Source: Flavobacteriales bacterium (GTDB taxonomy: Bacteria; Bacteroidota; Bacteroidia; M30B66). From it: a DNA stretch of 64,000 nucleotides. A program made the translations under genes and the position numbers. The stretch is taken from NCBI GenBank assembly GCA_044369395.1, contig JBIPLZ010000421.1, forward strand, positions 24,847 to 88,846, given 5' to 3'. A model generated the notes under the pieces. It ran no database searches, had not been told where the DNA came from, and saw only the letters and a list, made by a program, of their open reading frames with translations. This document shows, piece after piece, positions 3,001 through 59,630 of the stretch (position 1 is its first letter; the number at the start of each line of letters is the position of its first letter).

Positions 3001-3411
3001 ACCACCAATAGTAACGGAAGTTGCCCCAGTAAATTTGTACCCTGTTATTGTTATTGACCTATTGCCAACAATAGAACCACTAGTAGGGCTAACAGATGTA
3101 ACAAAAGGTGCAGTTGTACAATCACCGCCAGTTATTGTTGGTGCTGGGGATGCACCAGTAATAACAGACCAAGTTGCTAAAAGTGGATTAGCTTGAAAAG
3201 CATTGCCAGCATAAATAGTGACATTATTTTTTTCAAAAACTAAAGTGTCGCCATCGTAATTCCAATAATATCGTGTAGTTGGAGTTCCAACCTTTTCCCA
3301 CGCATTATTTGTACTATTTAAGGTGTAAACCCCATTTACATCTGGTGTACCAGCACCGGAAACGCAATGTGTATCAGCCACTTTAGAAGCTACCTCCGTC
3401 AATATCCACAC
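46..3411 (-). CDS. long tail fibre protein: N-terminal IPT/TIG-like Ig domain, (PT)n linker, then fibre shaft
   Basis: 1121-aa ORF. The N-terminal ~280 aa contain a TIG/IPT-like beta-sandwich signature (PFVTSVSPTSGSIVGNRSITITGYKFTGATSVTIGG...), followed by the linker TPTPTPTPTPTPTP. Residues NTIRIKRSS...LLEGELAANIID then repeat the N-terminal anchor motif of the neighbouring fibre (MANTIRIKRRS...APAELAYN). The rest is Gly/Thr/Ser-rich with ASGxLSWS and QRDASGxFSAG repeats typical of phage fibre shafts. Confidence 0.65.
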   Translation of the reverse strand: MWILTEVASKVADTHCVSGAGTPDVNGVYTLNSTNNAWEKVGTPTTRYYWNYDGDTLVFEKNNVTIYAGNAFQANPLLATWSVITGASPAPTITGGDCTTAPFVTSVSPTSGSIVGNRSITITGYKFTGATSVTIGGAAATNVNVVSATSITATTPAGTTGTASVEVTTANGTSSANSLYTYLNNVCVAGAGTTTYNGTYEILANGNYQKTGTPTTTISFDSEYSEWLFYNSGGVGYYASGNSTTLPLTGWFVYGNGTTPAPTTTVGSCTTPTPTPTPTPTPTPNTIRIKRSSTTTATPTSLLEGELAANIIDKKVWIGDASNTPVLISDYNNAGGSGTVTSVAMTVPTGLSVSGTPVTTTGTLAVTLTSGYSIPTTSSQTNWDSAYTQRLQWDGGATNLVAATGRTSLNLNNVENTALSTWNGSTNITTVGSATTRNLTIAPLSQSNTAPSKCLTVTAPAHTNLTSGSECIDIDINLARTVSFAWGQAQFAKGIRIQAPTYSVVGSTMGGMTGAATVHIDSAPIAGTSLGIGNSYALRVLTGTTAGHGITVLGVNGQTGDLFQAQVYSSPVFANGFSNFLNAFTISSNGSVLLGPTGTSAGKTNELRFLELYANGQNYVGFKASDSIDSNVIWTLPAADGTAGQVLSTNASGVLSWSSAGSGTVTSIATTSPITGGTITGTGTIGINATSANTASYVVQRDASGDFSAGKITLGGSGSSTSAQLTFSGSTNNWIDLGTNGYGAPTFTTRSVGTKVVFYKDLGASSTDYAAGVQLNSLWFSIPAATSDRAFRFYGGTTNIASLTGDGSFSANKKITGETLSSTVAIGTAPITVTSTTQVANLNASLLESYSTATANTVSTIVRRDASGNFSAGTITAALTGNASTATSLAGGGAGQVPYNTASGATSFLAAGTAGQVLQSNGTSAPSWSTVTAGSSVTTSATAPASPTAGNQWYDTNTGIIYTYVNDGTSSQWVQGSTATLATGVPAGGTTNQFLVKSSATDYATAWTGTLINPTFTNYTETLYDAGTGSAFTLNLSNGTIQKFTTNANMTLTLPASTAGKSFVVIVVYGAVNTLTWSSPSTLKWVGGTTPTATSVAGKIDIFSFFQDGTNTYGTVYGQNF

Positions 3412-5277: not shown

Positions 5278-6534
5278 TTAGGTCATCCAAACGTTAGTTT
5301 TTCCGTCTCTTGACGCATATTCGTAATTTTTAAATAACAAAGAAAAATCTTTGTATTTGTAAACAGTATTTCCGGGTACAGCTCCTGGAGGTAAAATATT
5401 AGTTACGTTGTCGTAAGCTTCTATAGGTGGAAAACCGTTATGGGTTATAAGTTTATAACTTTGACTTCCTTGTAAAACTCTAGCAACAGCACCGGGAAGT
5501 TTTAAATTAGTATCTTTAGAAACTGGAAAATGTTGTAAAAACCAATTATGACCTCTAGGTTCTGTAGTAGGCTGACTTGTATTAACTGCCCCCGGCTCAG
5601 GATCAAAAAACTTCATTTTAAAAGTGATGTCATAAAGACGTTGATCTTCTAACCATCGATAAGGTTTTAACTCTACATTAGTAAGAAGTAATTGACCTTT
5701 TTTTGCACCAAGTGCATCCCAATCATATAAATTTACAGAGCCAATATGTGTTTTAATTGCTGCTGGAATACCGGGAACTTTGTGATGTATTACAACAATT
5801 TCAGAAGCACTTACTATTTTACCCTGAGCTCCTTGAACCATAATACCTACTGGCTCTTTTGTTTTAGCATCTAACAGCGGAAGTCCGTTTTTATCAAACT
5901 CTACCCACTTGTAAGCACCAAAAGGTAAGGATAAAAATTCTGCGGTTGGTTGTTTAAATACAGTAGTAAATTGAGATAATTGATACTCATCTGGTGATAC
6001 AGATTGTGATCCAATAAGTGGTTCTACTCGATAAGTAACTGATTCATAATTAATAGTTATTCTTGCTATGTCATAATAAGATGTTTGTAGTTTTGATCCA
6101 CTGCCTAAACTGTCATATAATATTTGTTGACCTAAACATTCAATGCTTTCTAGTCCAGTAGCAACCATAAAACTTTTTGCTGCTCCACCATTTGGACCAC
6201 CGTTTGATCCGTAGTATACATAATATTGATCGGGTTTTTCTCTTACTATTGTGTTGTCTGTAGGTGTTCCATCAATTGTTGCTGTTCCAAGCATGTATTT
6301 TATAAAAACCCATCTTTGTGGATAAGGAACATCAAAAGTTCTACGAGCACGAAACGTATCACCAGTGTATGACTCTTGTGGAGATCCTGGTCTTTCGTAA
6401 TAAGTTACAGCTTCTGTTCTTGGTTCTGCGGGTGTATTTGGAAAAGCAGAAGCCACTTTATAATTAATAATTGCAACTGACATTTTAAACTCCTTAAGAG
6501 GATGCGCCCATAGGTATTTTGTTTTCTCGAACAC
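5278..6534 (-). CDS. hypothetical distal tail/baseplate protein (probable true start at 6483)
   Basis: 418-aa ORF directly downstream of the tape-measure-like gene. An internal Met (MSVAIINYK) at 6483 is preceded by AAGGAG on the minus strand and removes the overlap with the giant gene. Confidence 0.4.
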   Translation of the reverse strand: MFEKTKYLWAHPLKEFKMSVAIINYKVASAFPNTPAEPRTEAVTYYERPGSPQESYTGDTFRARRTFDVPYPQRWVFIKYMLGTATIDGTPTDNTIVREKPDQYYVYYGSNGGPNGGAAKSFMVATGLESIECLGQQILYDSLGSGSKLQTSYYDIARITINYESVTYRVEPLIGSQSVSPDEYQLSQFTTVFKQPTAEFLSLPFGAYKWVEFDKNGLPLLDAKTKEPVGIMVQGAQGKIVSASEIVVIHHKVPGIPAAIKTHIGSVNLYDWDALGAKKGQLLLTNVELKPYRWLEDQRLYDITFKMKFFDPEPGAVNTSQPTTEPRGHNWFLQHFPVSKDTNLKLPGAVARVLQGSQSYKLITHNGFPPIEAYDNVTNILPPGAVPGNTVYKYKDFSLLFKNYEYASRDGKTNVWMT

Positions 6535-9500
6535 CCTCGTTTACTTTTTCAAGCTCTTTAAGCATGTTTATTAAACCGTGCTCATTCATTTTTTTCAATT
6601 CTGCTGTCATAGGATCATCACCAAGAGCCGATACTTGGATTTTTTTGTATGCTTCTTCTACAGAAGAATAAGAAGATTGTGACTTAGAACTTTGATATGC
6701 CATTGATAATTGTTGTTTAGAATCATTAGCAGGCAATGGTTTTCCGTTAGCATCTTTTTCATTTCTTCGTTTATCACCAAAAGCTAAATTTGAAGTTCCA
6801 CTTGCAATCTTACTTCCACCCCAAGATCCCAGTGCTCCACCTATTAAACCGCCTACAGCACCACCCACCGCAGTTCCAAGAGGTCCTACTAAAGAGCCAA
6901 GTGCAGCACCTGCCCAAGCACCACCCATAGCACCTGCTAAAGCACCACCGCCTGCACCAGCTACTTGAGCTCCTGTGCGTACAACATTTTCTCCACCACT
7001 CATACTTTTAATGTCAGCGTTTTCCATTCCTTCAGAAACACCACCTACAATGCCAGAAAGAATTCCACCTGTCATAGCAGCTCCACCACCTCCAGCTAAT
7101 AGTTTTGCTAAAAACCCAGTAGTTTTTGCACCAGTGGTACTGGCTGCTCCAGCCGTTGCTGCACTTGCCCCCGCTTTAGCAGCTCCCGCTGTAGCAGCAC
7201 CTGCTCCCGCAGTAGCAGCACCTGCACCTGCGGTAGCGGTAGCAGCACCTGCTGCTACTGGAGATACTGGAGGAACGGCTGCTCCTCTTCTTAGCATTAA
7301 AGAACTTGCTAATAAAGCTGCTCGAAAGAATGCAAATCCGTTTATTAAAAGAGATACACCCGATACAAGGGCTCCAAAGAAAGCAATCGCAGGAAGAACG
7401 GCTGCTCCTAAAAGTGCAATGCCTACGCCAAGAGCTAGGAATTTTCCATCTAAAACGCTGTTAACAAGACTGGAAAACATGCTAAACAATCTTCCAGCCG
7501 TTCCCGTACCGTTCATTATTTCCCTTGCCCACGTTTGAATTATTTGTGAAGCTCTAAGAAATACGGGAATTAAAGCCATGCCTACCGCACCCGATAAAAG
7601 CTTAATCGATCCGGTAAACGTAGCAAAAGTATCAGGAGATGCGTTAGCAGTCATACCACTCATGCTTTGACTAAAGCTTTGAATCTTTGCACTAGCTTCG
7701 GTAAGGTTTGATACAAAAGCTCCAAATCTTGTGTTTTTAACAAAATCGTTTAGCTTGTCTTTAAATGGGCCCATTATATCGCCGGAAGAGTAACTACCAC
7801 CAGAAGGTCTGGTAATAGTTGCACTTCCCCCACCAACCACACCGCCCCTTGCCATATGAGAAACACCGCGTTTTTTGTAAGCCCCTAACGCTGCCATCAT
7901 GTAAGGCACATCTTTTTTGGCGGTTATGTATTCTCCCTCTTGTGCCCAAACAGGAGTTTGATCTAAACCTTTAGGCTTTCCAGGAAATGAGTTTTTACCT
8001 CCTACAAATCCACCTAGAAAATGATGTTCTGGCCGTCTTCCACTTCCAGCTTCTGGATCAACAGCAGGTTTGTTTTTTATTAAATCATTTAATATTTCTG
8101 TTAAAGCTTGTAGTTCTTGTTTGAGTTTTTCTATAGCATCTGCACTAGCTTCAATTGCTTTTTTTTGTTTTTCAACTGCTATATCAATGTCTGCATCTGA
8201 AATTTCTGCACCGCTCATTTTTTGAGCTTGCAGTTCTTTTTCTAAATCTTCCGGAGATTTCATATTCTCTAGATCATATTTTTGAGCTTCTTTTATTTCT
8301 ATTTCATTTCTTTTTTCTTTTATTTCGGGAGTGTCTGTAGCATCTTCTTTTTGTTTACTTCTTTCTTTTTGTCGATGTTTTTTTTCTTCTTCTCTTTCCT
8401 CAAATCGTTCAGCTCTTTCAGTATTAAAACGATTAACTAAAAGACCTCCACCTAGTTTACCTAAAAATCCCCCTATAAGAGATCCAATAATTCCTCCTAT
8501 AGGTCCAACTGCTGCTGTACCAAATGAAACACCAACCGCAGCGCCAAAAGCTGCACCCATAACACCTATACTTGTTTCAGCTTGAGGAAGAACTTTTGAA
8601 GGTTTATCATCTGCGGTGTTTTCTATATATTTAATTTCGTACTCAGGGTATTTTTTCTGAATTTGTTGAAAGGCTTCTTCTTCACTACTTGCGTATTCGT
8701 GACCTTCTTTTTCACGAGTAAAATCATTTACGTCTTTATTTGGATTAATTATGTTGTAGTAAAATTCTTTTTCTTTAGAATCATCTTCGGGTTTATTGTT
8801 TTCTAGTTCTTCATATACAGGCGGTTTATTTGATTTAGTTATTTTAGTAAGAGCATATCCTAGTTCTTTAACTTTTTGTTGAGCTTCTTCTTCTGAACTA
8901 GCATTAATAGAATCTTTAACTTCTGTGCCTGTAGAATCCATTGCTTCGTAGTCATATCTAAACTTTGATTTTTTTTCTTTTGTTTCTTCTGTATTAGGAA
9001 TTGCATTAACAATAGAATCTACGTCAATAGTGTCGTGATCTTCGTAAGCATTTCCACTGTAACGGTTAAGAGTTTCGGCTAATACTTCTGCCCAACCTGC
9101 TGGTACTTCTTCTCTAAATCGAGGAATAGCTTGTTTAGATTCTGCATTAATCTTTGTTGTAGCTTCTTCTTTTTTTTCTTCTTGTTTTTCTTCTTTTGTT
9201 ACGTCTGGATTTTTAGTAACTTCTGGTTTTGTATCCTTAGCATCTTCTGTTGTTGCATCACTAGGTTCTGAAATAATTAACGGTTCGTCATCATCTTTTT
9301 TTACTTCGGTAGTTGTTTCAGCGGTGCTGCGTTTAATATCATTAAGTCGGTTTAATTGATTTTGAACAATAACCAGATTGGCTCTAGCGATCTTTTGAAA
9401 GATCGGGTTTGCCATTGTCTTAAGATAAGCTTCTATTTTTTTCTGTTCTTGTTCTAAAGATCCTCTTCCGCTTTCATCTATTCTTTTAACTGCGGTAGGA

Positions 9501-12500
9501 TTTAATGGTTTTACTTCTTTATCTAAATCGCCTCTGTCTGCACCCGTAAAGTTGTCAACTTCTTTTTGAAGTAAATAAGCAACAGTAGCAGGGTCAAAGT
9601 TAGAGGTCTTATCTTTAAATGCTTGATCTCCAGACAAAGAGTGACCCATTAATGCTGCAAGAATCATATGGGAGTTTAATCCCCCAGATCGACCTATCAA
9701 TCCATCAACAGCAGACATACCGTTAAACGCTCCATGATTTTTTTCAAGTTGAGCATTTACTTGTGGAGTTTGCATTAACTCCATAGGTACTTGTATTTGT
9801 GAAGCAGCACTACCGTATAGATCGCCATCTCCCATTTTTCTAGGAACAAATTTAGCTGCTTTATTAGAAGGACGTGCTGGCTCTTTTGTTGGTTCGGAAA
9901 CAATTTCTGGTTCGACTACTGGTGCAGCATTTTCAATGCTTTTGTCATAAGCAGCTTGAGCATTTTTAAGTTCTTCTTCTGCGTTTTCAAAAGCTAAAAT
10001 TTCAGCAGGCGGTTGATTTTCTCTTAATAAAAATGCACGATCTTTTAATTTTTTTTCTTTTTCAAAAGCTATTCGTGCATTAACTAAATCTGCTTTTAAA
10101 TTTTTATTTTTGGGTTTTAAAGGATTTCTATCTGTAGGTTTTATTTTTGGAGTTTCAGCAATGTCGGGGTCAACATCTCCACTTTTAGCGTGTCGAGTAT
10201 CAATTTCATTAGCATTTTCATCGTATCGATAATAACTTCCATTTTCTCCTATATATACTAAATCACTATTTATATTTTTAGATATTGTTCCAGGGATTCC
10301 GGGTTTGAAATTTTTTCTTCTTTCTATTTCAGAATTGATTGTATTTCTTTTTTCTTGTTCTTCTAAAGTATATCCCTCTTCTGATGGCTTCATTTCATCA
10401 AGAACATCCTTGAGTGTTTGAAAACCCCAGTGTTTAATCATTTCTGTAAAATTTGAATATTCGTCAGACTGCTCATTTGTTGGTAAACTTATTGGTTTTT
10501 CTGGTGGTACTACTGGTTTAATAATTGAAGGACGTGGCTCGGGATTTAAATCAATCGGTGGAGTTTTAGGGGTGATACTAATAGTAGGATCAGCGTGTCC
10601 TGTTACACCAAAGCTTGTATGAATTTTGCCATCTTGATAAAGATACTGTAATCCATTCTCTCCAGTATAAACTTCTTCGTTATCTTTATTTTTAGATAAA
10701 GTTCCAGGAATGCCAGGTTTAAAATTGTCTCTTCTTTCTATTTCTTTATCTACGTTAGCGTTATCTTCAATTTCAAAATCTTGCCAATTTGGACTTCCAT
10801 CTGAGTTGTAACCTTTTCTAGGTTCTCGAAATTCTTGCTGTTCTTTTAATTCAGAATACCTATAGTCTAGAAAACGATTTTTCTTTGGTGCTGTTGCTGA
10901 AGAAGTAGTTTCTGGTGCTAATTCTATTTCTAATTCAGCTATAGCTTTATCTATCTCTTTGATTTCGTCTTCGCTTAATGGAGGAGCAGTTGCAACTTTA
11001 GGTTTTGATTTTGCAACATCTTTTGGTGTATTGTTTTCTTTTTCTTTTTTCTTTTTATTTAAAACTCTAAATAACGTTGCTCCCGCTACTCCAGCAGTTC
11101 CTAAAGCAAGAGCTATTAATCTTCCAAAATTTGAACTAGGCTTTTCTTTTGGATTTTCTGAAACCTCTGGGGTTGCTATTTCAGACTCCATTGGAGAAGG
11201 AGTAGGTGCTGGGGATGGAGGTTGGTTTAAAGTGTTGTTTGGAGTTTGTATGTCTCCCGAAGCTTCAACGTCTTTAATGTGTGCTTCTTTTTGAGCACGG
11301 GAAAACTTTCTCCATTTACTAGGATCAATAGATTTTTTAGAAAACAAACCTTTTTTTAAACGAGCAGCTCCTTTCATTAAAGAAAGAGGTTTTTCATTTC
11401 CTTCTATATCTGCAACATGAAGATGACCTTCAGCAGCAAGTTTTTCAGTTAGAGATTCACCGTCTACTAAAATGTCCCCAAGAAGTCGTTGATATTTATC
11501 TAACTTTGGTTTTCCTTCACTATCTACTAAAACTTTTGCTTCAATTTTTTTTGCATTAGCTAATATATTTCTTGCTGCATCTTCTGCTTCTCGTCCACCT
11601 GGCTGATCAAGTTCTCCTGGTCCATGAGCAACTTCCGGAGCATCTCCTTTATTAAGTCTTAATTTACCTTTACCCGTGTCATAAGTATCAGCATCTTTAA
11701 TAAGATTACTAGTAAGAGGATTTTTAACGTTCATTGGAAACGTTACGTATTTTTCTTCTTTTATAGAAGCCGGTTTTTTATTTGTTGAGGTAGGTTTTGA
11801 ATTTACCGGAATAGTAGGTAAAGATAAAGCAGGGGTTGGTTTAGCCGTAGGAGCTGTAGAATAAAACGGAGCTTGTGACCCTGATATAATACTGTCAGGT
11901 GGAACATTTGTTGAGCCTTTAATTCCAACTTTAGGAGCATTAGGATTAGTAGATCGTAACAATGGCGGGTTATTTTTACTGGATTGTTCAATTGCTGATG
12001 GTATAGCTACAATAGTATCTACAACATTTTTAACTATGTTATCAAGATTTTTTTGAGGATCTTCGGGTTTAGGTTCTAAAGGCAGTATTCCACCTTGGCT
12101 GTAAAGACCTCCAGCAGCTAACCAAGCTTGTTCTTTTTTATCTTTTTCTTCTTTTTCTTTTTGATTTTTTTCTTCTAAAGCTGCTGTTTCCTCAGCCGTC
12201 GGTGGAGGGCCTGCAAGTTGTGCTGCTTTTGCATCTTCTTTTTGTTTCTTAAGTGCTGCTACTCTAGCAGCTTCTTTTTCTTTTTCCGCACGGATTTGTT
12301 TAATATCTTCAACAGCAGAAGATGGTTTAGCAGCTTCTTCTGCTTTTCTTTCACGGTCTGCATAAATACTTAACTCTGCTGCATTTGGACTTTTATCTTT
12401 ACGACGATCTTCAATTCCTTTTTGGAAAAAGTTTTCACGGGCTCTTGGGTCGCCTATTACACTTCCTTCAACACCGTTATTTTTATTTACAAATCCCGCG

Positions 12501-15500
12501 GCTCTTTCGTCTTCTAATGTTCCAGCCCCTGCCATAGAAGCCATTAACATTGGAACAATAGCTGCTGCTAACATTGGTCCAGATAAAGAGTTTTTAATTG
12601 CAGCTACAATAGAATATTTAAAATCACCTGCGGGAAGGTTTTGATCTTTTAATCCAGAGACATCATGGCCTGCAATACCTTTTAAAACGGCTGCAAGAAG
12701 TTCTTCAAAAGAAGATAAGTATTTGCCAGAGTCAAAAGCACCTGCTAAATCTCCCGATTTCTGGTTGCTAATTGCTCCGTATGCACCTTGAAGCTCTCCT
12801 CTAGCTTGAGCTAAGTCGGCTCCTTCTGCAAATAAAGCGGGTATCTTATTAGAAAGACCATGAATAAAAGCTTCTTCCATAATTAAAGCTATTACTTTGG
12901 CTCTTGCTTCAGCATCATTTCCTAAAATAGCAGCGTCAGGAATTGCAAGAGTAAGTGATTGTTTTAAGTTATCACCTTCACCTTTTGTTCCTACACGACC
13001 TTGATATTCTCCATCTTTTCCTTTTATGCTTTCACTACGAGATATTTTTATTTTGTCAAATATTTTGTAGATGTTTATGCCCATTTCATTTGAAATGGTT
13101 TTTAATAGGTTTTTTACCCCTTCAACATAAGAAGCATCAGTGACAACTTTATTACCTTTATTTATTCTTAATTCTGCATCGCCTTCTTTTTGATTGATGT
13201 TTTGTATGCTTGAATCTTTTCCGGAATAAAACTTTTTGATAATAGAAGAAACTGTTTCAACAACAGATATTAAATTTTTATCTGGAGTTTTACCAGAGTC
13301 GTTAGCTAGGTTTTTTACTATGCTTGAAACGTTTTCGCTAGGGGGTGTAATTGAACTTTTAAGTTTTTGAAATTGAGAAGCTAACGCTCTAAATATTTGA
13401 TCTTGAATTTCAGTATCAACACTTGCGTCATGTGCTGTACCTTCTGTAATTATTCCAAAAGCTTCTTTTTGAACTTCAATTGTAAATATTGTTTTTCCAT
13501 CTTCAGAAGCTTCTTGTTGTTTTATAGAATCAACAATACCTGATCTGTTTTCTTTTTCTTCTCTTTTTTTTGCTTGATCTAAAGCAATTTTTGTAAGCTT
13601 TGTCTGAAGATCAGAAGTTTTAAAATGTTTTTTTTCTATTTCTATTAATTGTTTAATTATGTAATCAGTGTTTACATTTGCATATGAAGCGGAACCTATT
13701 TCATTTTTTCTTTTATCAACATTTCCAACAATTTTTAACATTGCATTTTTTATTTCGTCATTATTAGCATTAGCTAAATCGTCTTCATATGTTCCTTTTC
13801 GATTAATTGTTGCTGTAGGATCTTTCTCTAACATTTCTGCAATTTTATCTGTTATACGTTTTGCAGCATTTTCTGGAGTTAAAGTATTTCCAGCGTCATC
13901 TTCTTTAAGATACGTTTCATTAAAATCTTTAAATTTTGGGTCTTTGTTTAAATCGAGAGTTTCATCTGCCTTAATAAAAATGTTTAAAGGTTCAACTAAA
14001 TTTTTTCCTAAAGCATCTTTCATAATCATGCTTAATTGAACAATCTGAGCTTCAATTGCATGATTTTCAGAATTAACAGGGGCTGTTGGCGGTGATACTG
14101 TCTCAGCATCTATTGTTATTACATTTTTATTTTTAAACAGATTTCCAATATTGTTTAAATCTAAAAGTATTGAAGATAAGTTTTCATTTGAATCAGAATT
14201 AGAGTCGGAGTCATTATTAGCGTCTATAAGCTTAGTAACTAAATTTTCTGTCTCTAATGTTTTTTGACCTCTTGCTAACGCTTCTTGTGTGCTTTGGGTT
14301 AATGTTGAAACAGGAGCAGATGTATTAGTTGCAGAAGCATCTTTTACTCCATAAACTGAATCTCTTGCATCTTGTTTTTTTTGTCTTCTTGTTTTAAAAA
14401 GATTATCTTTGTTATCAATACCAGCAGCAATTAATGCAAGCTCGGCATCTTTAAACCACTTTTCTATTCCAAGTCGTTCTAAATAATAATTTTTAAGCTG
14501 TTCTAGTTTTTTAAGATACCAGTTATTTTCTTCTGGAGGTTCAATCTTTGCTATTTCTTCTTTAGACAAACCTTTTATTTTTTCTTGATATTCTTTTTCT
14601 GCTACATCATCTTTTTCTTTTTGTCTTTTTTGACGAGGAGAAAGATCCGCATTTTTAATTGCTGCCATAGCTTTTTTATGAGCAGCAGTTACGTTTTCTT
14701 TTTCAGTTAAATAGTTAACATAAGACCGTAAAGGTTTTTGATAATGCTCCCCAAATTTGTTGATGTCTTCAGCTAAAGAGTCGGGTTGATCTAAAAAGCT
14801 TTCGTAAGTTCTCTTATTAAAAGGCTCTAACGGCTTTTCATCATTTTTGTGATTATCTTTGTTAGTTTGCCGTATTGCTTCTAATCTTTCTTGATGGGCT
14901 CGATACTCTATTTCTTTGGCAACTAAATACTCAACGTAGTTGTTTAGAGCACCAGCAGATTCTGTTTGTTCTTTTTTATAAGTATTTACAGCGTTTGCTT
15001 GTTTATAAGCATCAACATTCCCTGGCATGGGAAAGTCTTGTTTTCTTTGTACATCTTTTTCTTCTTTTTTCTTTTCATTTGCTATTCGTTTAGCATCTTG
15101 AAATTTTTCGTATAGCTCAGATTTTGTTTCTAAAAAAGCTTTGTACTTTGCTAAATTTTCTTGATTCCTTTTTACTTCATTAGCATTTCGTTCTGCTACT
15201 ACTTGCTTGCTTTCGTTATAAGATTTTGTCCATTGAGCTTTCTTTTTTAAATATTCAAGGTGTTTTTTTTCACTCTCAGCGTCTTTTGGGCTGGAAACTT
15301 TTGGATCTTCATTAAACGCTTTGGTCCATTGAGCTTTCTTTTTTAAATACTCAATATGATCTCGTTGATCTTGAGTCATACCACTACTGTCAACAGCTTC
15401 TCGTTTAGCTTTTTCTTCTTCGTAAAATTTTGTAGATGCTTCAGATTTCCTTTTAAGCATTTTTACGTAATCAGCTAATATTTCGTCATCGTTAAGAGTG

Positions 15501-15898
15501 GGATCTTTTACGTTGTTTTTTGCAGCGAGTTGTTTACGAATAAGAATCTTTGCGTTTTCACGCATAGCAAAACTTGCAAGAATTTCAGCGTCAGATTTTT
15601 CACCACCACCACTACTACCACTTCTAGCAAAGTGACTAGCAAGACCGCCTCGTTGCCCACCGCCTTGATTGTCGTTACTAAACAGGGATCGAGATGCTCT
15701 CATTTGAAATGCAAGAGCGTGGAATTCTACTGCAATGTGCTTGGCAGAATCTTGAATAGATTCTAATTGAATACTAAAACGGTTTAAAGAAGCGGTCATT
15801 TGAGAGAACTGCTCAAATATTTTTTTGACCGCTTCTGCACCGGTGTAAGGTACTTGTGATAGTTTTGGACGACCGTGTTCTTGTCCTTGACCGATCAT
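6494..15898 (-). CDS. giant tape-measure-like virion protein (3134 aa) with an embedded staphylococcal-nuclease (SNase/thermonuclease) domain
   Basis: It sits after the tail-assembly-chaperone pair and before the distal tail genes. It is highly charged, K/E-rich and coiled-coil-like, with internal tandem repeats. The C-terminal ~500 aa have Gly/Ala-rich hydrophobic segments (GAAVLPAIAFFGALVSGVSLLINGFAFF...; AGAATAGAGAATAGAG). At roughly aa 1270-1400 (about nt 11410-11720) there is an SNase-like signature: DADTYDTGKGKLRLNKGDAPE...KIEAKVLVDSEGKPKLDKYQRLLGDILVDGESLTEKLAAEGHLHV. Confidence 0.6.
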   Translation of the reverse strand: MIGQGQEHGRPKLSQVPYTGAEAVKKIFEQFSQMTASLNRFSIQLESIQDSAKHIAVEFHALAFQMRASRSLFSNDNQGGGQRGGLASHFARSGSSGGGEKSDAEILASFAMRENAKILIRKQLAAKNNVKDPTLNDDEILADYVKMLKRKSEASTKFYEEEKAKREAVDSSGMTQDQRDHIEYLKKKAQWTKAFNEDPKVSSPKDAESEKKHLEYLKKKAQWTKSYNESKQVVAERNANEVKRNQENLAKYKAFLETKSELYEKFQDAKRIANEKKKEEKDVQRKQDFPMPGNVDAYKQANAVNTYKKEQTESAGALNNYVEYLVAKEIEYRAHQERLEAIRQTNKDNHKNDEKPLEPFNKRTYESFLDQPDSLAEDINKFGEHYQKPLRSYVNYLTEKENVTAAHKKAMAAIKNADLSPRQKRQKEKDDVAEKEYQEKIKGLSKEEIAKIEPPEENNWYLKKLEQLKNYYLERLGIEKWFKDAELALIAAGIDNKDNLFKTRRQKKQDARDSVYGVKDASATNTSAPVSTLTQSTQEALARGQKTLETENLVTKLIDANNDSDSNSDSNENLSSILLDLNNIGNLFKNKNVITIDAETVSPPTAPVNSENHAIEAQIVQLSMIMKDALGKNLVEPLNIFIKADETLDLNKDPKFKDFNETYLKEDDAGNTLTPENAAKRITDKIAEMLEKDPTATINRKGTYEDDLANANNDEIKNAMLKIVGNVDKRKNEIGSASYANVNTDYIIKQLIEIEKKHFKTSDLQTKLTKIALDQAKKREEKENRSGIVDSIKQQEASEDGKTIFTIEVQKEAFGIITEGTAHDASVDTEIQDQIFRALASQFQKLKSSITPPSENVSSIVKNLANDSGKTPDKNLISVVETVSSIIKKFYSGKDSSIQNINQKEGDAELRINKGNKVVTDASYVEGVKNLLKTISNEMGINIYKIFDKIKISRSESIKGKDGEYQGRVGTKGEGDNLKQSLTLAIPDAAILGNDAEARAKVIALIMEEAFIHGLSNKIPALFAEGADLAQARGELQGAYGAISNQKSGDLAGAFDSGKYLSSFEELLAAVLKGIAGHDVSGLKDQNLPAGDFKYSIVAAIKNSLSGPMLAAAIVPMLMASMAGAGTLEDERAAGFVNKNNGVEGSVIGDPRARENFFQKGIEDRRKDKSPNAAELSIYADRERKAEEAAKPSSAVEDIKQIRAEKEKEAARVAALKKQKEDAKAAQLAGPPPTAEETAALEEKNQKEKEEKDKKEQAWLAAGGLYSQGGILPLEPKPEDPQKNLDNIVKNVVDTIVAIPSAIEQSSKNNPPLLRSTNPNAPKVGIKGSTNVPPDSIISGSQAPFYSTAPTAKPTPALSLPTIPVNSKPTSTNKKPASIKEEKYVTFPMNVKNPLTSNLIKDADTYDTGKGKLRLNKGDAPEVAHGPGELDQPGGREAEDAARNILANAKKIEAKVLVDSEGKPKLDKYQRLLGDILVDGESLTEKLAAEGHLHVADIEGNEKPLSLMKGAARLKKGLFSKKSIDPSKWRKFSRAQKEAHIKDVEASGDIQTPNNTLNQPPSPAPTPSPMESEIATPEVSENPKEKPSSNFGRLIALALGTAGVAGATLFRVLNKKKKEKENNTPKDVAKSKPKVATAPPLSEDEIKEIDKAIAELEIELAPETTSSATAPKKNRFLDYRYSELKEQQEFREPRKGYNSDGSPNWQDFEIEDNANVDKEIERRDNFKPGIPGTLSKNKDNEEVYTGENGLQYLYQDGKIHTSFGVTGHADPTISITPKTPPIDLNPEPRPSIIKPVVPPEKPISLPTNEQSDEYSNFTEMIKHWGFQTLKDVLDEMKPSEEGYTLEEQEKRNTINSEIERRKNFKPGIPGTISKNINSDLVYIGENGSYYRYDENANEIDTRHAKSGDVDPDIAETPKIKPTDRNPLKPKNKNLKADLVNARIAFEKEKKLKDRAFLLRENQPPAEILAFENAEEELKNAQAAYDKSIENAAPVVEPEIVSEPTKEPARPSNKAAKFVPRKMGDGDLYGSAASQIQVPMELMQTPQVNAQLEKNHGAFNGMSAVDGLIGRSGGLNSHMILAALMGHSLSGDQAFKDKTSNFDPATVAYLLQKEVDNFTGADRGDLDKEVKPLNPTAVKRIDESGRGSLEQEQKKIEAYLKTMANPIFQKIARANLVIVQNQLNRLNDIKRSTAETTTEVKKDDDEPLIISEPSDATTEDAKDTKPEVTKNPDVTKEEKQEEKKEEATTKINAESKQAIPRFREEVPAGWAEVLAETLNRYSGNAYEDHDTIDVDSIVNAIPNTEETKEKKSKFRYDYEAMDSTGTEVKDSINASSEEEAQQKVKELGYALTKITKSNKPPVYEELENNKPEDDSKEKEFYYNIINPNKDVNDFTREKEGHEYASSEEEAFQQIQKKYPEYEIKYIENTADDKPSKVLPQAETSIGVMGAAFGAAVGVSFGTAAVGPIGGIIGSLIGGFLGKLGGGLLVNRFNTERAERFEEREEEKKHRQKERSKQKEDATDTPEIKEKRNEIEIKEAQKYDLENMKSPEDLEKELQAQKMSGAEISDADIDIAVEKQKKAIEASADAIEKLKQELQALTEILNDLIKNKPAVDPEAGSGRRPEHHFLGGFVGGKNSFPGKPKGLDQTPVWAQEGEYITAKKDVPYMMAALGAYKKRGVSHMARGGVVGGGSATITRPSGGSYSSGDIMGPFKDKLNDFVKNTRFGAFVSNLTEASAKIQSFSQSMSGMTANASPDTFATFTGSIKLLSGAVGMALIPVFLRASQIIQTWAREIMNGTGTAGRLFSMFSSLVNSVLDGKFLALGVGIALLGAAVLPAIAFFGALVSGVSLLINGFAFFRAALLASSLMLRRGAAVPPVSPVAAGAATATAGAGAATAGAGAATAGAAKAGASAATAGAASTTGAKTTGFLAKLLAGGGGAAMTGGILSGIVGGVSEGMENADIKSMSGGENVVRTGAQVAGAGGGALAGAMGGAWAGAALGSLVGPLGTAVGGAVGGLIGGALGSWGGSKIASGTSNLAFGDKRRNEKDANGKPLPANDSKQQLSMAYQSSKSQSSYSSVEEAYKKIQVSALGDDPMTAELKKMNEHGLINMLKELEKVNEGVRENKIPMGASS

Positions 15899-15907: not shown

Positions 15908-16114
15908 TTACAATTTAGGGGAAGGCTCACTATTTTGTTTGTTCCAAAGTTTTTGAGTCTCTTCTTCTGAAAGACCTCTCCAATCTTTGTTAACTTTCCA
16001 AAATAGTTCTTTAGCCGATTGATATTGACCAACTGGTTCGTCTGCCGATTTTGGTCTAAAATACAAGTTTTTAACTTGATAGGGGGTGAGCTTACTTATC
16101 TGCTCAATACTCAA
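15908..16114 (-). CDS. tail assembly chaperone, -1-frame extension (GT-like C-terminal part)
   Basis: A 68-aa ORF is annotated from a TTG, but its frame is open upstream for at least about 50 more codons, overlapping the end of the 147-aa ORF in the -1 frame. Confidence 0.35.
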   Translation of the reverse strand: MSIEQISKLTPYQVKNLYFRPKSADEPVGQYQSAKELFWKVNKDWRGLSEEETQKLWNKQNSEPSPKL

Positions 16115-16158
16115 GTTATATGGGTCACGTAATAACGTCGCAAAGATCTCTGAGATAC

Positions 16159-16602
16159 TTATCCGGCGGCCTGGTTCTGAGCTGCCTCCGGACCACTCGG
16201 GTTTGGGTCGGTGTTCGCCTCTCCAACTTTTTCCATCATTTCTTCTAATCGTGTTTGAACAAGATCATCAATCGTATCAATTTCAATCTCAGGATGATTA
16301 GGAAGAAGACAAATATGAAGAATTTTTTTAAAGTGAGTAAGCGTTTGCATAGCTCTCATACAAGGAGCAGATCCAAATGCGTAATACCCTTCTGCAATAT
16401 CTTTTTGAGTTTGAGCAATTAACTCTGCGTACTCTGTTTGTGTTAAATACTGACGCATTCTTTTTGCAGTCTTAACCGCAGTGTCTTCTAAATACTTTTC
16501 AAAATCACCTTGAATTTTGTATGTCCAAGGAGAGCATGTATACTTTACACCGTTGTGCTCAAAGGTACTACCAAGCCCCAGTGCTTTAGAAATCTCAGCC
16601 AT
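16159..16602 (-). CDS. tail assembly chaperone (G-like, upstream frame)
   Basis: 147-aa ORF immediately upstream of the tape-measure-like gene, in the canonical position. The -1 frame is open across its 3' end and continues into the next ORF. Confidence 0.4.
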   Translation of the reverse strand: MAEISKALGLGSTFEHNGVKYTCSPWTYKIQGDFEKYLEDTAVKTAKRMRQYLTQTEYAELIAQTQKDIAEGYYAFGSAPCMRAMQTLTHFKKILHICLLPNHPEIEIDTIDDLVQTRLEEMMEKVGEANTDPNPSGPEAAQNQAAG

Positions 16603-16611: not shown

Positions 16612-17154
16612 CTAAATGTTATAAACTTCATAATCCGGACTATTGTTTTTGCCTGAAAAAGTAATTTTTGTAATGCCTTTAGCTTCAGCAGTCTGAGTAC
16701 ATTGTGTAATTAAAAAGCTGTTAAAAAGCCAATAAGCATTACTACTACCTAAAGCAGGCAACGTTGAAAAATTAGGCGAACTTCGATATTTATCTGGGTA
16801 TAAAGCAAGAGCTATTGTTCTCCCTGCTGTTAATTCAAAGCCACCCGAAAACCAAAATTGAACTCCACCAGAAGTTGAAGCTGTATCATAAAAAGCTTCT
16901 ACATTTACAATAATTTCAGATACAGTTGGAATAGCATACTTAGTGTTTATTTTTTTAGGATTGTTTCGAATACCAGCAGCAATTTGAGCACCTTGAGTGC
17001 TAGTAAGATCTGCTGTTTCAATTGACATGTCAACAGACCATTTATTTGCTTTTATAACTTGCCAAGGTCCGGGAGTTGCTGCTGACGCATGAAGTGGTAA
17101 AGCTGCATAAGTTGCCATAGCAACTCGACCACCCCACCCTGCAATTACTGCCAT
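16612..17154 (-). CDS. hypothetical tail protein
   Basis: 180-aa ORF in the tail module between the tube-like proteins and the chaperones. Confidence 0.3.
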   Translation of the reverse strand: MAVIAGWGGRVAMATYAALPLHASAATPGPWQVIKANKWSVDMSIETADLTSTQGAQIAAGIRNNPKKINTKYAIPTVSEIIVNVEAFYDTASTSGGVQFWFSGGFELTAGRTIALALYPDKYRSSPNFSTLPALGSSNAYWLFNSFLITQCTQTAEAKGITKITFSGKNNSPDYEVYNI

Positions 17155-18288: not shown

Positions 18289-18996
18289 TTAAAGAACCCT
18301 CGTTATCATAATATCGTATATTACAGATCCACGAAAGATCAAATTTCCATCTTTATACCGAAAATTTTCACTTCGGACATTTTGTTCAATTGGCTGCATA
18401 GACACGGTTTTGTTGGTTGTTTTTTCAAAAGGCAGGGGTTTCCAGTCAAACGATTCTCTAATTATTTCAAGACATTCATCTATTAAAGCAGCACCCGGAG
18501 CGTAGACTATAAAATCTAAATTAGTGCCTTCAAAATAAGTTGCTTCTGTTGTGAAATTAAAACTACGATCTGAATCTCGAATAATTACATAAGGCATAGA
18601 AAGCGTTTTGCCTTCTATAGATTCAGGAGCTTCATTGGCAAACATTCCTCCAGTAAACTTGCTCATTAAAGAAGGAGTGGAATACCATTTACTTTTAACG
18701 GCTGCTAATATCGAATCGGGATTGTTTAAATCAAGTGATGAAAAAAACGGTAAAGAAATATTATTTTGAGCATCTTTACATACAGCATAAACTTGTTGAA
18801 AACTAAAAGCAGGGCGATTGCTTACACGAAGATCACCAGATTGAAGTAATGATCCGTAATATAAATATTGCTCTGTAAAACTATCAGAACTTTTTGTGTA
18901 AATATCTACAGTGTAGTTTTGTGGAAAAGATGTTCTAACAATAAAAGAAGTAGAGCTTTCTTTTATTAAATCAAAAGAAGGACTTGGTATGCTCAT
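18289..18996 (-). CDS. hypothetical neck/tail-completion protein
   Basis: 235-aa ORF between the head-tail joining genes and the tube proteins. Confidence 0.3.
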   Translation of the reverse strand: MSIPSPSFDLIKESSTSFIVRTSFPQNYTVDIYTKSSDSFTEQYLYYGSLLQSGDLRVSNRPAFSFQQVYAVCKDAQNNISLPFFSSLDLNNPDSILAAVKSKWYSTPSLMSKFTGGMFANEAPESIEGKTLSMPYVIIRDSDRSFNFTTEATYFEGTNLDFIVYAPGAALIDECLEIIRESFDWKPLPFEKTTNKTVSMQPIEQNVRSENFRYKDGNLIFRGSVIYDIMITRVL

Positions 18997-42645: not shown

Positions 42646-43548
42646 ATGAAAGTAGTAGACTTATTTGCAGGAGCTGGAGGCTTTAGCACCGGAGCAGTAC
42701 AAGCTGGGTGTGAAGTTGTATGGGCTGCTAACCACTGGAAAGATGCGGTGCATGTACATGAGTGCAATCACCCCAAGACTTTCCACAGTTGTCAAGACTT
42801 ACAGCAAGCAGACTTTACTACCTTGCCACAGTACGATGTTCTGTTAGCCAGCCCCTCTTGCCAAGGGCATAGCAAAGCTCGGGGAGCGGATCAACCAAGA
42901 CATGATGCAGCAAGGAGTACAGCATGGGCTGTTGTTGCCTGCGTTGAAACCACCAGGCCCAAAGCTTTTGTAGTAGAGAATGTCACAGAGTTTTTAAGCT
43001 GGGAACTATTCCCACAATGGAAAGGCTGCATGGAAAAGCTTGGATATAACTTAGCTTCCAACATATTAAACGCTGCTGACTTTGGTGTGGCTCAATCTAG
43101 GATAAGAGTTTTTATTACCGGATCTAAAGCTCAACCTTTACAAGTTCAAACAAACCCATTTAAAAAACACATACCTTTTAAAGACTTAATTGAAGACGGG
43201 GATTATAAGTGGTCAACCGTTTCTGATAAAGCTGATAGCACTAAAAGAAAATGGGCTAACGGAATTAAAGACCACGGAGATAATTTCTTAATTGCCTACT
43301 ACGGATCTGAACGTGGGGGTAGAAGTATTAAGAAGCCCCTTGGAACAATAACCACGAAGGAAAAGTTTGCTCTTATCAATAGGGATAAGATGCGAATGCT
43401 TTCTTTGAGTGAATACAAAAACGCTATGGGATTCCCAGAAAAATACCTATTGCCTAAAAGCAAGAGCCTAGCACTTCACATGCTGGGCAATGCAGTCTGC
43501 CCTCCCGTTGCAAAAGAGATCCTAACCCAAATGAAAGAGTGTATTTAA
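42646..43548 (+). CDS. DNA (cytosine-5) methyltransferase
   Basis: Motif I DLFAGAGGFSTG, motif IV SPSCQGHS, motif VI ENV, motif VIII QSRIR. Confidence 0.8.
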   Translation: MKVVDLFAGAGGFSTGAVQAGCEVVWAANHWKDAVHVHECNHPKTFHSCQDLQQADFTTLPQYDVLLASPSCQGHSKARGADQPRHDAARSTAWAVVACVETTRPKAFVVENVTEFLSWELFPQWKGCMEKLGYNLASNILNAADFGVAQSRIRVFITGSKAQPLQVQTNPFKKHIPFKDLIEDGDYKWSTVSDKADSTKRKWANGIKDHGDNFLIAYYGSERGGRSIKKPLGTITTKEKFALINRDKMRMLSLSEYKNAMGFPEKYLLPKSKSLALHMLGNAVCPPVAKEILTQMKECI

Positions 43549-51980: not shown

Positions 51981-52175
51981 TTACAAAGCTATACCTCTCT
52001 CTGGTGGAGATGTAGGATCTCCGGTACGAGGATCAAAAGGCCAATCTTCAATGTCAGGACAGATACATTCCCTTGCATGTTCGTCATGGATAGAACAGTA
52101 CCATTCTTCGCAAGACTCACAAATAAACCACACAGGCTCCCCACGATGGGGAGTCTTTTTTTTTTGATCTTTCAT
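51981..52175 (-). CDS. small Cys-rich zinc-ribbon protein
   Basis: CESCEEWYCSIHDEHARECICPD. Its ATG overlaps the PhoH stop (ATGA). Confidence 0.4.
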   Translation of the reverse strand: MKDQKKKTPHRGEPVWFICESCEEWYCSIHDEHARECICPDIEDWPFDPRTGDPTSPPERGIAL

Positions 52176-52831: not shown

Positions 52832-52845
52832 GATGCTTTCCTTTA

Positions 52846-59542: not shown

Positions 59543-59559
59543 AGGATTCCTTCCTGTTG

Positions 59560-59600
59560 TATTATCATTAAATAATGATTTGTATGATTTGTCAATCTTA
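59560..59600 (-). promoter_or_regulatory. sigma70-like promoter upstream of the RNR gene (TTGACA-17-TTTAAT on the minus strand)
   Basis: Minus strand: TTGACAAATCATACAAATCATTATTTAATG in an AT-rich gap between the polymerase and RNR genes. Confidence 0.3.
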
Positions 59601-59630
59601 TTTTCGGAATTGTTCTTATTTTTATTTGAA

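Follow-up and report, generated by a model that had tools for sequence, protein, structure and literature searches.

Why should a protein that occupies the place of a phage tail tape measure contain a nuclease fold? The question is raised by the 64,000-nucleotide stretch of DNA analysed here (the window), in which an earlier note, made from the sequence alone, had placed a staphylococcal nuclease (SNase) domain within a giant tape-measure-like protein. The single minus-strand ORF of ~9.4 kb that it described is confirmed, and its ATG has AAGGAG ahead (Table 1). At least 21 independent contigs (JGI, ENA, Logan and NCBI) carry the identical 3134-aa protein, many of them being 94.6-95.2 kb in length; therefore, the ORF is not an assembly artefact. 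No integrase or lysogeny genes were detected in this ~95 kb phage, and no homologue of the protein was found in cultured phages. The K/E-rich composition and the Gly/Ala-rich, hydrophobic C-terminus were both borne out by composition and hydropathy scans, whereas the claim of internal tandem repeats holds at the protein level (178/210, 317/389 and 1720/1858), but not at the DNA level, where TRF found low-complexity arrays only.

The genomic context agrees with a tape-measure protein (TMP): as had been proposed, the giant gene lies between the tail-assembly chaperone pair, a conserved -1 frameshift pair immediately ahead of it, and the fibre genes. The chaperone G-position gene keeps its size and sequence in all relatives, and has a slippery heptamer, CCCAAAC, at 16201-16207; the protein encoded by the overlapping -1 frame ORF and the sequence GACCCAAACC are kept in L001, L006, L008, L009 and L010. 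Further upstream, the genes follow the SPP1 order (portal, protease, capsid, adaptor, head-completion and gp17-like) and include an SPP1-like neck module; the 235-aa product matches PDB entries 5a20_G and 2lfp_A with an E-value of 0.006 (phmmer). The candidate major tail tube protein gave no Pfam, PHROG or PDB match, even with a 13-sequence profile, and searches gave no identification of the candidate distal-tail gene. The synteny is invariant across clades with giant genes of 2433 to 3857 aa. Within the protein itself, PHROG tail-lysin and TMP families match residues 2668-3102, mostly within its Gly/Ala-rich part, and a separate scan of residues 2650-2880 gave no PHROG match, so that direct sequence evidence of TMP homology is weak. 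Proteins of 590-1062 aa share the N-terminal head, the core and the C-terminal tail, and two of them, P0129 and P0092, match PHROG TMP families over the core region; the homology link is transitive, running through proteins that share the core and tail and match these families. Taken together, position, composition, PHROG matches and shared modules support the assignment as a putative TMP.

Table 1. Features of the giant gene and its neighbours (window coordinates)
Feature	Residues	Position (nt)	Strand	Evidence
Giant tape-measure-like gene, 3134 aa		6494..15898	-	ORF list and translation
Conserved N-terminal head	1-200	15299..15898	-	Comparison with relatives
K/E-rich helical repeat region	~100-500	14399..15601	-	Units of type H(I/L)EYLKKKAQWTK
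DEDDh 3'-5' exonuclease-like domain	~588-855	13334..14137	-	AF2, Foldseek, motif conservation
Alpha/beta domain, function not assigned	~880-1095	12614..13261	-	AF2, conservation
Hydrophobic segment 1	1097-1128	12515..12610	-	Hydropathy scan
SNase domain	~1383-1530	11309..11752	-	Pfam, phmmer, AF2, Foldseek, alignment
Hydrophobic segment 2	1591-1613	11060..11128	-	Hydropathy scan
Duplicated ~45-aa module (EIERRxNFKPGIPGT...)	~1715-1903	10190..10756	-	Repeat search
Two small T2SSF N-terminus-like modules	~2305-2425	8624..8986	-	PF28597 T2SSF_N, local HMM
Glycine-zipper hydrophobic segment 3	2442-2488	8435..8575	-	Hydropathy scan
'GGF' motif module	2620-2690	7829..8041	-	Comparison with relatives
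Tape-measure core	2700-2875	7274..7801	-	Conservation, shared with 590-1062-aa proteins
Gly/Ala-rich glycine-zipper region	2876-3050	6749..7273	-	Composition, hydropathy
Conserved C-terminal tail (SSYSSVEEAYKKIQVSALGDDPMT...)	3055-3134	6497..6736	-	Comparison with relatives
147-aa gene, tail-assembly chaperone G position		16159..16602	-	Position, conservation
-1 frame ORF ('T' part) overlapping end of 147-aa gene		15908..16264	-	Conservation in relatives
180-aa gene, candidate major tail tube protein		16612..17154	-	Position only
235-aa gene, weakly like SPP1 gp17 (tail-to-head joining protein)		18289..18996	-	phmmer
401-aa gene directly downstream of giant gene, candidate distal-tail		5278..6483	-	Position

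The SNase-like strings quoted in the earlier note correspond to residues 1402-1495 (nt 11414-11695); its nucleotide range (~11410-11720) was correct, whereas its residue range (~1250-1420) was off by ~130. A Pfam scan of the full-length protein returned zero matches, and the domain was detected only when the segment was scanned separately: a 165-aa excerpt matches SNase PF00565 with an E-value of 3.1e-8 and 34.5 bits, against a curated cutoff (gathering threshold) of 21 bits. The segment also matches staphylococcal nuclease PDB chains by phmmer (E 2e-6 to 6e-5), and its AF2 model (pLDDT 92, pTM 0.86) superposes by Foldseek on staphylococcal nuclease in the PDB with an E-value of 2.5e-11, a TM-score of 0.76 and 26-27% identity. 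Within this fold, D1404, R1414, D1419, E1422 and R1471 correspond to D21, R35, D40, E43 and R87 of staphylococcal nuclease, and all are kept, including the Ca2+-binding residues. The equivalents of D21, R35, E43 and R87 are invariant in all six of the diverged family members, and that of D40 in five, P0007 having D40N; the nucleotide-binding Y113 and Y115 are not kept, and the first beta-hairpin is shorter. The domain forms a conserved island flanked by diverged linkers and, unlike staphylococcal nuclease, it is placed mid-way in a 3134-aa structural protein between conserved hydrophobic segments. Residues ~1383-1530 are a true SNase domain, with a resemblance to the thermonuclease family far beyond chance. 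The contrary view, in which a biased composition and the empty whole-protein scan would betray a fortuitous resemblance within an artefactual ORF, has a negligible probability: it is refuted by the Pfam segment match and by concordant PDB sequence matches, AF2 and Foldseek results, while precomputed PF00565 matches are independently present in two relatives (P0007 and P0009) and the identical ORF recurs on many contigs.

A further nuclease-like domain, predicted to adopt a DEDDh exonuclease fold, occupies residues ~588-855. The AF2 model (pLDDT 78) matches RNase T, ExoI, Orn and 3'hExo in Foldseek, with E-values of 9e-5 to 8e-3 and TM-scores of 0.56-0.66. Its signature residues are D597 and E599 (ExoI), E705 (ExoII position), and H823 and D828 (ExoIII). 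Across 12 proteins down to 26% identity over the module, the DxE and HxAxxD motifs are invariant and the ExoII position is acidic, being Asp in seven of the aligned relatives (P0009, P0010, P0014, P0015, P0017, P0019 and P0020) and Glu in the remaining five; the clade of the 3134-aa protein has Glu. The domain shares with RNase T, ExoI and oligoribonuclease (DEDDh, DnaQ-like) both the predicted fold and the ExoI and ExoIII signatures, but it differs in its long helical insertions, in its ExoII carboxylate, in giving no significant Pfam or PDB sequence or profile match and in being embedded in a putative virion protein. In the alpha/beta domain that follows, E1008, E1009 and H1013 are invariant (EEAFIH), and the equivalent position reads HESIH in P0014, P0015, P0019 and P0020; with a weak hhalign match (E 0.016), this is probably a degenerate zincin-like domain. 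Neither of these two domains, nor the hydrophobic segments on either side of the SNase, had featured in the earlier note.

Rather than being enzymes, both folds might be structural spacers, or nucleic-acid binding modules that hold or steer the leading end of the phage genome within the tail and along the channel. SNase-like domains are used for nucleic-acid binding in Tudor-SN-type proteins, and in assembled siphovirus tails the TMP adjoins the end of the DNA; a binding role would also sidestep damage to the phage's own DNA, and it draws on the Glu at the ExoII position, the D40N substitution and the missing tyrosine pair. Non-catalytic SNase-like domains, however, normally lose their catalytic residues, and here both domains retain their full catalytic sets in proteins down to 26-27% identity over the modules, the pattern expected of active enzymes. 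We consider a binding role unlikely, though deserving of serious attention. Likewise, the purely non-catalytic spacer offered as a fallback in the earlier note is disfavoured, because the Arg, Glu and Asp residues aligned above are all retained.

The remaining modules place these domains within a wider architecture. Identity in the N-terminal head is 66-96% for residues 1-50 and has dropped to 12-86% at residue 200, the most distant giants included; the head is also found in P0010, P0014, P0015, P0017, P0019 and P0020, and in the 1062-aa P0152, which keeps it together with the core and tail. The K/E repeats differ in copy number among relatives (~10 units in L008). Hydrophobic segment 1 sits between the exonuclease/zincin-like block and the SNase, with equivalents in P0007, P0009 and L008, whereas the SNase is followed by a Pro-rich linker and then by segment 2, which is kept in P0007, P0008, P0009 and L008. 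The duplicated module lies in a variable region and is also present in P0014 and P0019; the precomputed T2SSF_N match is flagged as weak, as is the Pfam Gly-zipper_Omp match of segment 3, and the 'GGF' module is seen 3-8 times over in unrelated super-giant proteins. The core consists of a conserved helix (ASPDTFATF..S.K.LSG..G..LIP.F..AS.IIQ) and then hydrophobic helices. Every giant relative (1956 to >3612 aa) has the exonuclease module and a subset has the SNase, mid-size relatives have neither, and in P0005 the exonuclease cassette is swapped. Judged from these comparisons, the family is built as scaffold plus cargo. The scaffold comprises the head, the helical repeats, the core, the glycine-zipper region and the tail; the cargo cassette runs from the exonuclease fold through the degenerate zincin-like domain, the first hydrophobic segment, the SNase and the second hydrophobic segment to the small modules. 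On balance, we favour the view that the ORF encodes the tail tape measure of an uncultured ~95 kb siphovirus-order phage, and that its scaffold carries a nuclease cargo cassette delivered at injection.

The closest precedent is gp96 of Thermus phage P23-45, a 5002-aa TMP with a virion RNA polymerase as fusion partner, for which a role at the entry pore has been proposed (Nat Commun 2024, PMC10770324). Both are giant TMPs with a nucleic-acid enzyme, here a putative one, N-terminal of the ruler/membrane part, and gp96 likewise has metallopeptidase and transmembrane elements. The relationship would be one of analogy, not homology, as no sequence relationship was found (hhalign E 0.37; no tblastn match); moreover, the cargo there is an RNA polymerase and here a pair of nuclease folds, and P23-45 is cultured and biochemically tested, whereas the present phage is known from genes alone. 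Other TMPs carry envelope-acting domains, such as the C-terminal metallopeptidase of T5 Pb2 and the Rpf-like motif of mycobacteriophage TM4. In these, too, the TMP ferries an enzyme domain into the envelope on ejection and has hydrophobic segments that insert into the membrane, but the modules target peptidoglycan; Pfam found no muralytic domain in the 3134-aa protein.

A second comparison is with the polyvalent proteins of phages and conjugative elements, multi-effector giants thought to be delivered with DNA and frequently accompanied by a zincin-like peptidase (Iyer et al. 2017, PMC5512222). The 3134-aa protein similarly has several effector-type domains in one very large polypeptide; in contrast to them, its gene lies in the position of a TMP and it is built on TMP scaffold modules. 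Pfam found no MuF, ArdC or other hallmark polyvalent-protein domain in it, and the SNase is absent from the text of that paper. On a rival model, the protein as a whole would not be a length ruler: only the C-terminal ~500 residues would belong to the tail, and the N-terminal ~2600, including both nucleases, would be a polyvalent pilot or ejection part, cleaved off or stored outside the tail, such as in the portal or capsid. The scaffold modules do form complete 590-1062-aa proteins by themselves, and the HExxH peptidase motif of relatives could process a polyprotein, as Iyer et al. propose for polyvalent proteins. Such a division would also relieve a steric problem that is hard for any tail-resident cassette, namely, that the tail-tube lumen can hardly accommodate three or more copies of folded domains that are 150-270 aa long. 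Yet the head is retained along with the core and tail, even in P0152, the K/E repeat number varies as it does in true rulers, the peptidase motif is degenerate here, and P23-45 leaves its enzyme fused to the TMP; we regard this division of the protein as distinctly improbable.

Since two nuclease domains lie inside a tape-measure protein, the cell probably receives ready-made nucleases from the tail when the DNA is injected. By analogy with other long-tailed phages, the TMP would be held metastable in the tail-tube lumen and expelled before the DNA, whereupon its hydrophobic and glycine-zipper segments would enter the envelope to form a DNA conduit. Because the TMP would leave ahead of the DNA, both modules would reach the entry site pre-made within the first seconds of infection. 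A non-specific nuclease adjoining the phage's own entering DNA would be a hazard, and the model meets it by an assumed topology only: the hydrophobic segments would tether the nucleases and keep them topologically apart from the DNA in the channel. A host system offers a mirror image of this logic: SNIPE, a membrane-bound nuclease, binds TMPs and cleaves phage DNA where it is injected, and the lambda TMP reaches the inner-membrane ManYZ complex during injection (Nature 2026, PMC13190303). SNIPE places a tethered nuclease at the TMP/inner-membrane entry complex; it is, however, host-encoded and defensive, with other domains, and the likeness is one of logic, with no homology claimed.

As for the target, SNase enzymes require millimolar Ca2+, which the cytoplasm does not provide, and a cytoplasmic DNA target is doubtful for this reason. 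The nucleases could instead be counter-defence enzymes that, upon genome entry, destroy host defence RNAs or nucleotide second messengers (for instance, the cyclic oligonucleotides of CBASS, Pycsar or type III CRISPR), rather than chromosomal DNA. Phage nucleases that break down immune signals, Acb1 and Apyc1, reportedly exist; oligoribonuclease and RNase T, both active on short oligonucleotides, are among the nearest structural matches; and pre-made delivery would forestall abortive infection. We saw no likeness to Acb1 or Apyc1, though, and the sequence gives no pointer to cyclic-nucleotide specificity; SNases are, moreover, non-specific, Ca2+-dependent and typically extracytoplasmic, making a counter-defence role very unlikely. 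Under the delivery model that we favour, one module would serve as an endonuclease and the other as an exonuclease, most likely degrading host or competing nucleic acid at the entry site. If so, the phage would gain early host shut-off, nucleotide scavenging or the exclusion of rival DNA.

Judged from its sequence, the 3134-aa giant is real, and is a putative enzyme-carrying giant tape-measure protein (TMP), with nuclease folds as its predicted cargo. The 3134 codons form one ORF, with AAGGAG ahead of the ATG start, and the identical protein is encoded on at least 21 contigs (from NCBI, JGI, ENA and Logan); therefore, it is no assembly artefact. Many of these contigs measure 94.6–95.2 kb, which is probably the full length of the phage genome. 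In the metagenome collections that were searched, the family recurs: 50 blocks of the contig collection index the identical protein, and its diverged relatives stem from separate samples. The earlier note's description of K/E-rich stretches and a Gly/Ala-rich hydrophobic C-terminus agrees with the sequence composition, which also reveals Pro-rich linkers. The repeats are real at the level of the protein; in the DNA, the tandem repeats comprise low-complexity arrays only, the diverged repeats being visible solely in the protein. Additionally, two small modules of the giant carry a weak precomputed PF28597 T2SSF_N tag.

In a relative's locus, L008 (10001–20836), the giant gene encodes more than 3612 aa, with about ten tandem K/E-rich units as against two to four in the window protein. 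Its hydrophobic region is greatly expanded, and the variable part contains a CxxC...CxxC zinc-ribbon.

Approaching the giant from its upstream side on the minus strand, one meets genes for the portal, the protease/scaffold and the HK97-type capsid, followed by a 139-aa gene, a head–tail adaptor (222 aa), a head-completion-like gene (113 aa) and one of 235 aa, then three genes of 173, 159 and 180 aa, and finally a 147-aa gene; downstream of the giant come genes for a 401-aa protein, a fibre-assembly-like protein, a fibre and a 1121-aa TIG-domain protein. The neck genes (adaptor, head-completion protein and gp17-like gene) give weak to moderate matches, the last of these being the 235-aa gene, which weakly resembles the tail-to-head joining protein gp17 of SPP1 (E 0.006). 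By position, the 180-aa and 401-aa genes are candidates for the tail tube and the distal tail, respectively; neither these nor the 173-aa and 159-aa neighbours match Pfam, PHROG or the PDB, even with a 13-sequence profile. A −1-frame ORF overlaps the end of the 147-aa gene, and within this overlap there is a canonical slippery heptamer, CCCAAAC. Five diverged loci share both the context of the heptamer, GACCCAAACC, and the protein sequence encoded by the −1 ORF, and the heptamer is a probable programmed −1 frameshift site that joins the 147-aa gene to the −1 ORF. Frameshifted tail-assembly chaperones with such an arrangement are said, with reference to Xu et al. 2004, to precede tape-measure genes. 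The tape-measure-like position proposed in the earlier note is thus upheld: the giant lies directly downstream of a putative chaperone-type −1 frameshift pair, with the fibre genes following it.

Window positions and giant residues of the features discussed
Feature	Window positions	Strand	Giant residues	Remarks
Giant ORF	6494-15898	-		3134 codons
-1-frame ORF	15908-16264	-		stops 10 nt before the giant's ATG
147-aa gene	16159-16602	-		
CCCAAAC heptamer	16201-16207			
Protein-level repeats			178/210, 317/389, 1720/1858	residue pairs
DEDDh-like exonuclease-fold domain			~588-855	predicted
Putative zincin-like middle domain			~880-1095	alpha/beta
EEAFIH motif	12857-12874		E1008, E1009, H1013	invariant residues
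Hydrophobic segments			1097-1128, 1591-1613	bracket the SNase domain; in all relatives inspected
SNase-like strings	11414-11695		1402-1495	
Other hydrophobic/glycine-zipper segments			2442-2488, 2759-2869, 2933-2951, 3003-3021	hydropathy
'GGF' module	7829-8041		2620-2690	HHFLGGFVGG..P.W..GE.I..
704-aa protein	22171-24285	-		between portal and capsid
908-aa ORF	25656-28382	+		opposite strand; adjoins portal gene
TerL, PhoH, methyltransferase, RNR, PolA, primase-helicase set	42646-43548, 52172-54387, 57575-63952			

The 704-aa protein matches head-maturation proteases at its residues 84–244 only, and is probably a protease–scaffold fusion; its counterparts in relatives range from 601 to 853 aa. 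The 908-aa ORF lies in a region with a local GC of 0.305, and has no match in Pfam or PHROG.

Direct profile matches tentatively relate the C-terminal part of the giant to tail proteins. Residues 2668–3102 match phrog_1047 (E 1e-13) and phrog_794, a TMP family (E 9e-7), the matched families being those of tail-associated lysins and TMPs. These matches rest on the Gly/Ala-rich part, because residues 2650–2880 alone match no PHROG; moreover, no TMP family of Pfam is matched by the giant, either whole or in segments. There is, further, a transitive link. A TMP-core profile (residues 2615–2875), searched against 1.84 billion representatives, found 399 proteins, and local HMMs detect the core together with a conserved C-tail in proteins of 590–1062 aa, in which the N-head is sometimes also seen, and likewise in giants of 1956–4167 aa. 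Two of the mid-size relatives, P0129 and P0092, match four PHROG TMP families (phrog_28, 1533, 1293 and 4704) exactly over the core. The giant further displays traits of the TMP type, namely, a helical repeat region and hydrophobic/glycine-zipper segments, and the number of repeats varies among relatives. Because of synteny and transitive homology, we accept the giant as a putative TMP, short of a formally complete membership.

The staphylococcal nuclease (SNase) domain that the earlier note had read in the middle of the protein proves to be a true one: a 165-aa excerpt scanned alone matches PF00565 with 34.5 bits (curated gathering cutoff 21; E 3.1e-8), and the predicted fold agrees. The SNase-like strings fall within the nucleotide range that had been proposed for them, but the proposed residues, 1250–1420, were misplaced. 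When the whole 3134-aa protein is scanned with hmmscan, no Pfam family is matched, SNase included. With phmmer, staphylococcal nuclease chains of the PDB are matched, the E values running from 2e-6 to 6e-5. For residues 1383–1545, an AF2 model built on six family sequences has a pLDDT of 92 and a pTM of 0.86, and a Foldseek search with it returns staphylococcal nuclease structures as the best PDB matches (E 2.5e-11, TM 0.76, 26–27% identity); the predicted fold comprises an OB-fold β-barrel with three helices. Alignment with nuclease A, in a sequence that agrees with the PDB alignments, indicates that the catalytic and Ca2+-binding residues are retained: D21, R35, D40, E43 and R87 correspond to D1404, R1414, D1419, E1422 and R1471, respectively. 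Across six family members, down to 27% identity over the SNase module, all of these but D40 are unchanged, and D40 itself is replaced (by Asn) in P0007 alone among the six. Two tyrosines of nuclease A, Y113 and Y115, are not kept, and the first hairpin is shorter. The domain as a whole forms a conserved island flanked by diverged linkers. SNase enzymes typically require Ca2+, a need that argues for an extracytoplasmic site for the domain in the giant.

Similar arrangements are found elsewhere. The SNase segment is matched by phrog_8809, a family of 2317 positions with no annotated function, and BFVD holds a few long proteins of uncultured phages with SNase-like domains (e.g. A0A6J5NQ80, 1342 aa); therefore, such SNase fusions sit unannotated in databases. 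Against cultured phages, the segment gives a single weak match, to an Enterococcus phage (E 1e-3), and the matches of the relative P0009 are to free-standing SNase genes only.

A second nuclease fold is predicted nearer to the N-terminus, where DnaQ-type motifs were first suggested, at residues ~590–830, by reading the sequence. For this region, no Pfam family is matched at E ≤ 10 by any of five family members, and the best PDB match of its profile is exonuclease I, across the ExoIII region, at a non-significant E of 1.4. An AF2 model of residues 588–1100 (seven sequences, pLDDT 78) supports the reading: Foldseek matches it to RNase T, exonuclease I, oligoribonuclease and 3'hExo with E values of 9e-5 to 8e-3, a probability of 1.00 and TM scores, normalized to the target, of 0.56–0.66, indicative of an RNase H-like exonuclease fold. 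In 12 aligned proteins, drawn from all clades, the D-x-E of ExoI (D597 and E599) and the H-x-A-x-x-D of ExoIII (H823 and D828) are invariant. The ExoII position, placed by motif alignment, is acidic in all 12; it is E705 in the giant's clade and Asp in seven proteins (P0009, P0010, P0014, P0015, P0017, P0019 and P0020), several of which present it in the classical N..FD..L context. The model and motifs together point to a DEDDh exonuclease-fold domain at residues ~588–855, window 13334–14137, with an essentially intact signature; we withhold full family membership because the sequence-profile test was negative and ExoII was assigned by motifs.

Between the two nuclease folds there is a putatively zincin-like alpha/beta domain with an EEAFIH motif, of which E1008, E1009 and H1013 are invariant. 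At the equivalent site, also between exonuclease and SNase, the distant relatives P0014, P0015, P0019 and P0020 have HESIH, a canonical HExxH, which would make the domain in the giant's clade a degenerate zincin-like peptidase; a processing peptidase may thus have disappeared or changed there. The relationship is faint in profile comparisons: hhalign aligns the domain with the HExxH region of the relatives weakly (E 0.016 over 26 columns), Pfam gives no match to it, and P0019 has a SprT-like match at E 0.16.

The gene order around the giant does not vary between the clades examined, whose giants measure 2433, 3857 and >3612 aa. Local hmmsearch missed the exonuclease and SNase domains of relatives until its filters were switched off; with the HMMER filters off, all giants prove to have the exonuclease module (E 5e-8 to 1e-81), and SNase is found in P0001–P0009, P0013, P0019 and P0020, SNase being absent from P0010, P0014, P0015 and P0017, and both modules from the mid-size relatives. 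The relatives P0005 and P0004 are 95–100% identical over most of the 3253 aa of P0005, the exonuclease module excepted: there, P0005 shares 19–37% identity with P0004 and ~50% with the P0007 clade. Judged by these identities, the exonuclease of P0005 is a cassette exchange inside a tape-measure gene. P0005 also contains a private 200-aa insertion. The family is best described as a TMP scaffold with exchangeable cargo.

The 'GGF' module recurs 3–8 times, at a spacing of ~1000 aa, in more than 100 super-giants of 2000–7872 aa (P0018–P0151) in the representative library. These super-giants are without the TMP core and tail modules of the giant's family.

The window also encodes TerL, PhoH, a class II (B12-dependent) ribonucleotide reductase (RNR), a C5 cytosine methyltransferase, a family A DNA polymerase (PolA) and a DUF3987 primase–helicase; the PolA and RNR ORFs, as listed, overlap by ~98 nt. 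No integrase was found among ten of the larger ORFs in 25–64 kb, those scanned by Pfam, which is compatible with a lytic phage that has its own replication genes. Searches for tRNA genes found none, and there is no close cultured phage, capsid identity being at most 30%; megablast and tblastn likewise found no relatives of the giant among cultured phages. Scans of genome contigs gave no match for the host, and references here to a periplasm presuppose that it is diderm.

The closest tested precedent, and the sole tested fusion of a nucleic-acid enzyme to a TMP that we found, is gp96 of P23-45 (2024). As described in PMC10770324, it is a 5002-aa TMP, the N-terminal part of which is a virion RNA polymerase, with a metallopeptidase and transmembrane elements. 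The two proteins are analogous, not homologous, the likeness being architectural only. Homology was rejected on comparing the TMP-core profile with residues 572–5002 of gp96 (hhalign E 0.37), and a tblastn search of the phage collection with the giant gave no match. The polyvalent proteins of phages (PMC5512222) are also similar in combining at least two effector-type domains in one polypeptide, as SNase and the DEDDh-like module do in the giant. However, their hallmarks (MuF, ArdC-N and an MPTase with HExxH) are absent from the giant by Pfam, EEAFIH standing in place of HExxH, and SNase goes unmentioned in the text of that paper. The literature search yielded no paper that connects TMPs with SNase, and, judged by title and abstract, none of the papers that name both a tape measure and a thermonuclease concerns a nuclease within a TMP.

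The TMPs of other siphoviruses occupy the tail lumen and are the first to exit, entering the envelope and contacting inner-membrane proteins (PMC10770324); the TMP of lambda, gpH, reaches the inner-membrane ManYZ (PMC13190303). By analogy, the nuclease cargo would ride with the TMP and arrive pre-made at the site of entry, where an endonuclease acting together with a 3'–5' exonuclease could plausibly break down the nucleic acid of the host or of a rival. Speculatively, the flanking hydrophobic segments would let SNase and the exonuclease face opposite sides of the membrane. The main difficulties of such a cargo model are the sparing of the phage's own DNA and the fitting of folded domains into the lumen of the tube. 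A bolder form of it strikes us as improbable: the TMP would be a modular effector-delivery platform, with its two conserved hydrophobic segments holding the Ca2+-dependent SNase in the periplasm while the Mg2+-type DEDDh exonuclease faces the cytoplasm at the entry pore. If true, the periplasmic SNase would destroy the DNA of superinfecting phages or incoming plasmids, amounting to an instant, virion-delivered exclusion, and the exonuclease on the cytoplasmic side would attack host DNA ends or defence nucleotides. The giant would then be the phage's own equivalent of SNIPE and similar host nucleases that act at the injection site, and the first nuclease demonstrated to be carried within a tail tube.

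To our knowledge, TMPs are regarded as rulers and channel formers that carry cell-wall hydrolases at most. The TMP of the giant's family has two predicted nuclease folds with conserved active-site residues, on a scaffold-plus-cargo plan for which there is evidence of cassette exchange. Whole-protein HMM scans miss domains in such compositionally biased giants, and similar cargo is, therefore, probably under-annotated. Should the domains prove to be active and to be ejected, long tails would be capable of injecting nucleases made in advance; this would raise the sharp question of how the phage DNA survives its passage beside them, and would provide a model, open to testing, of how the host is shut off at once or rival DNA is excluded.
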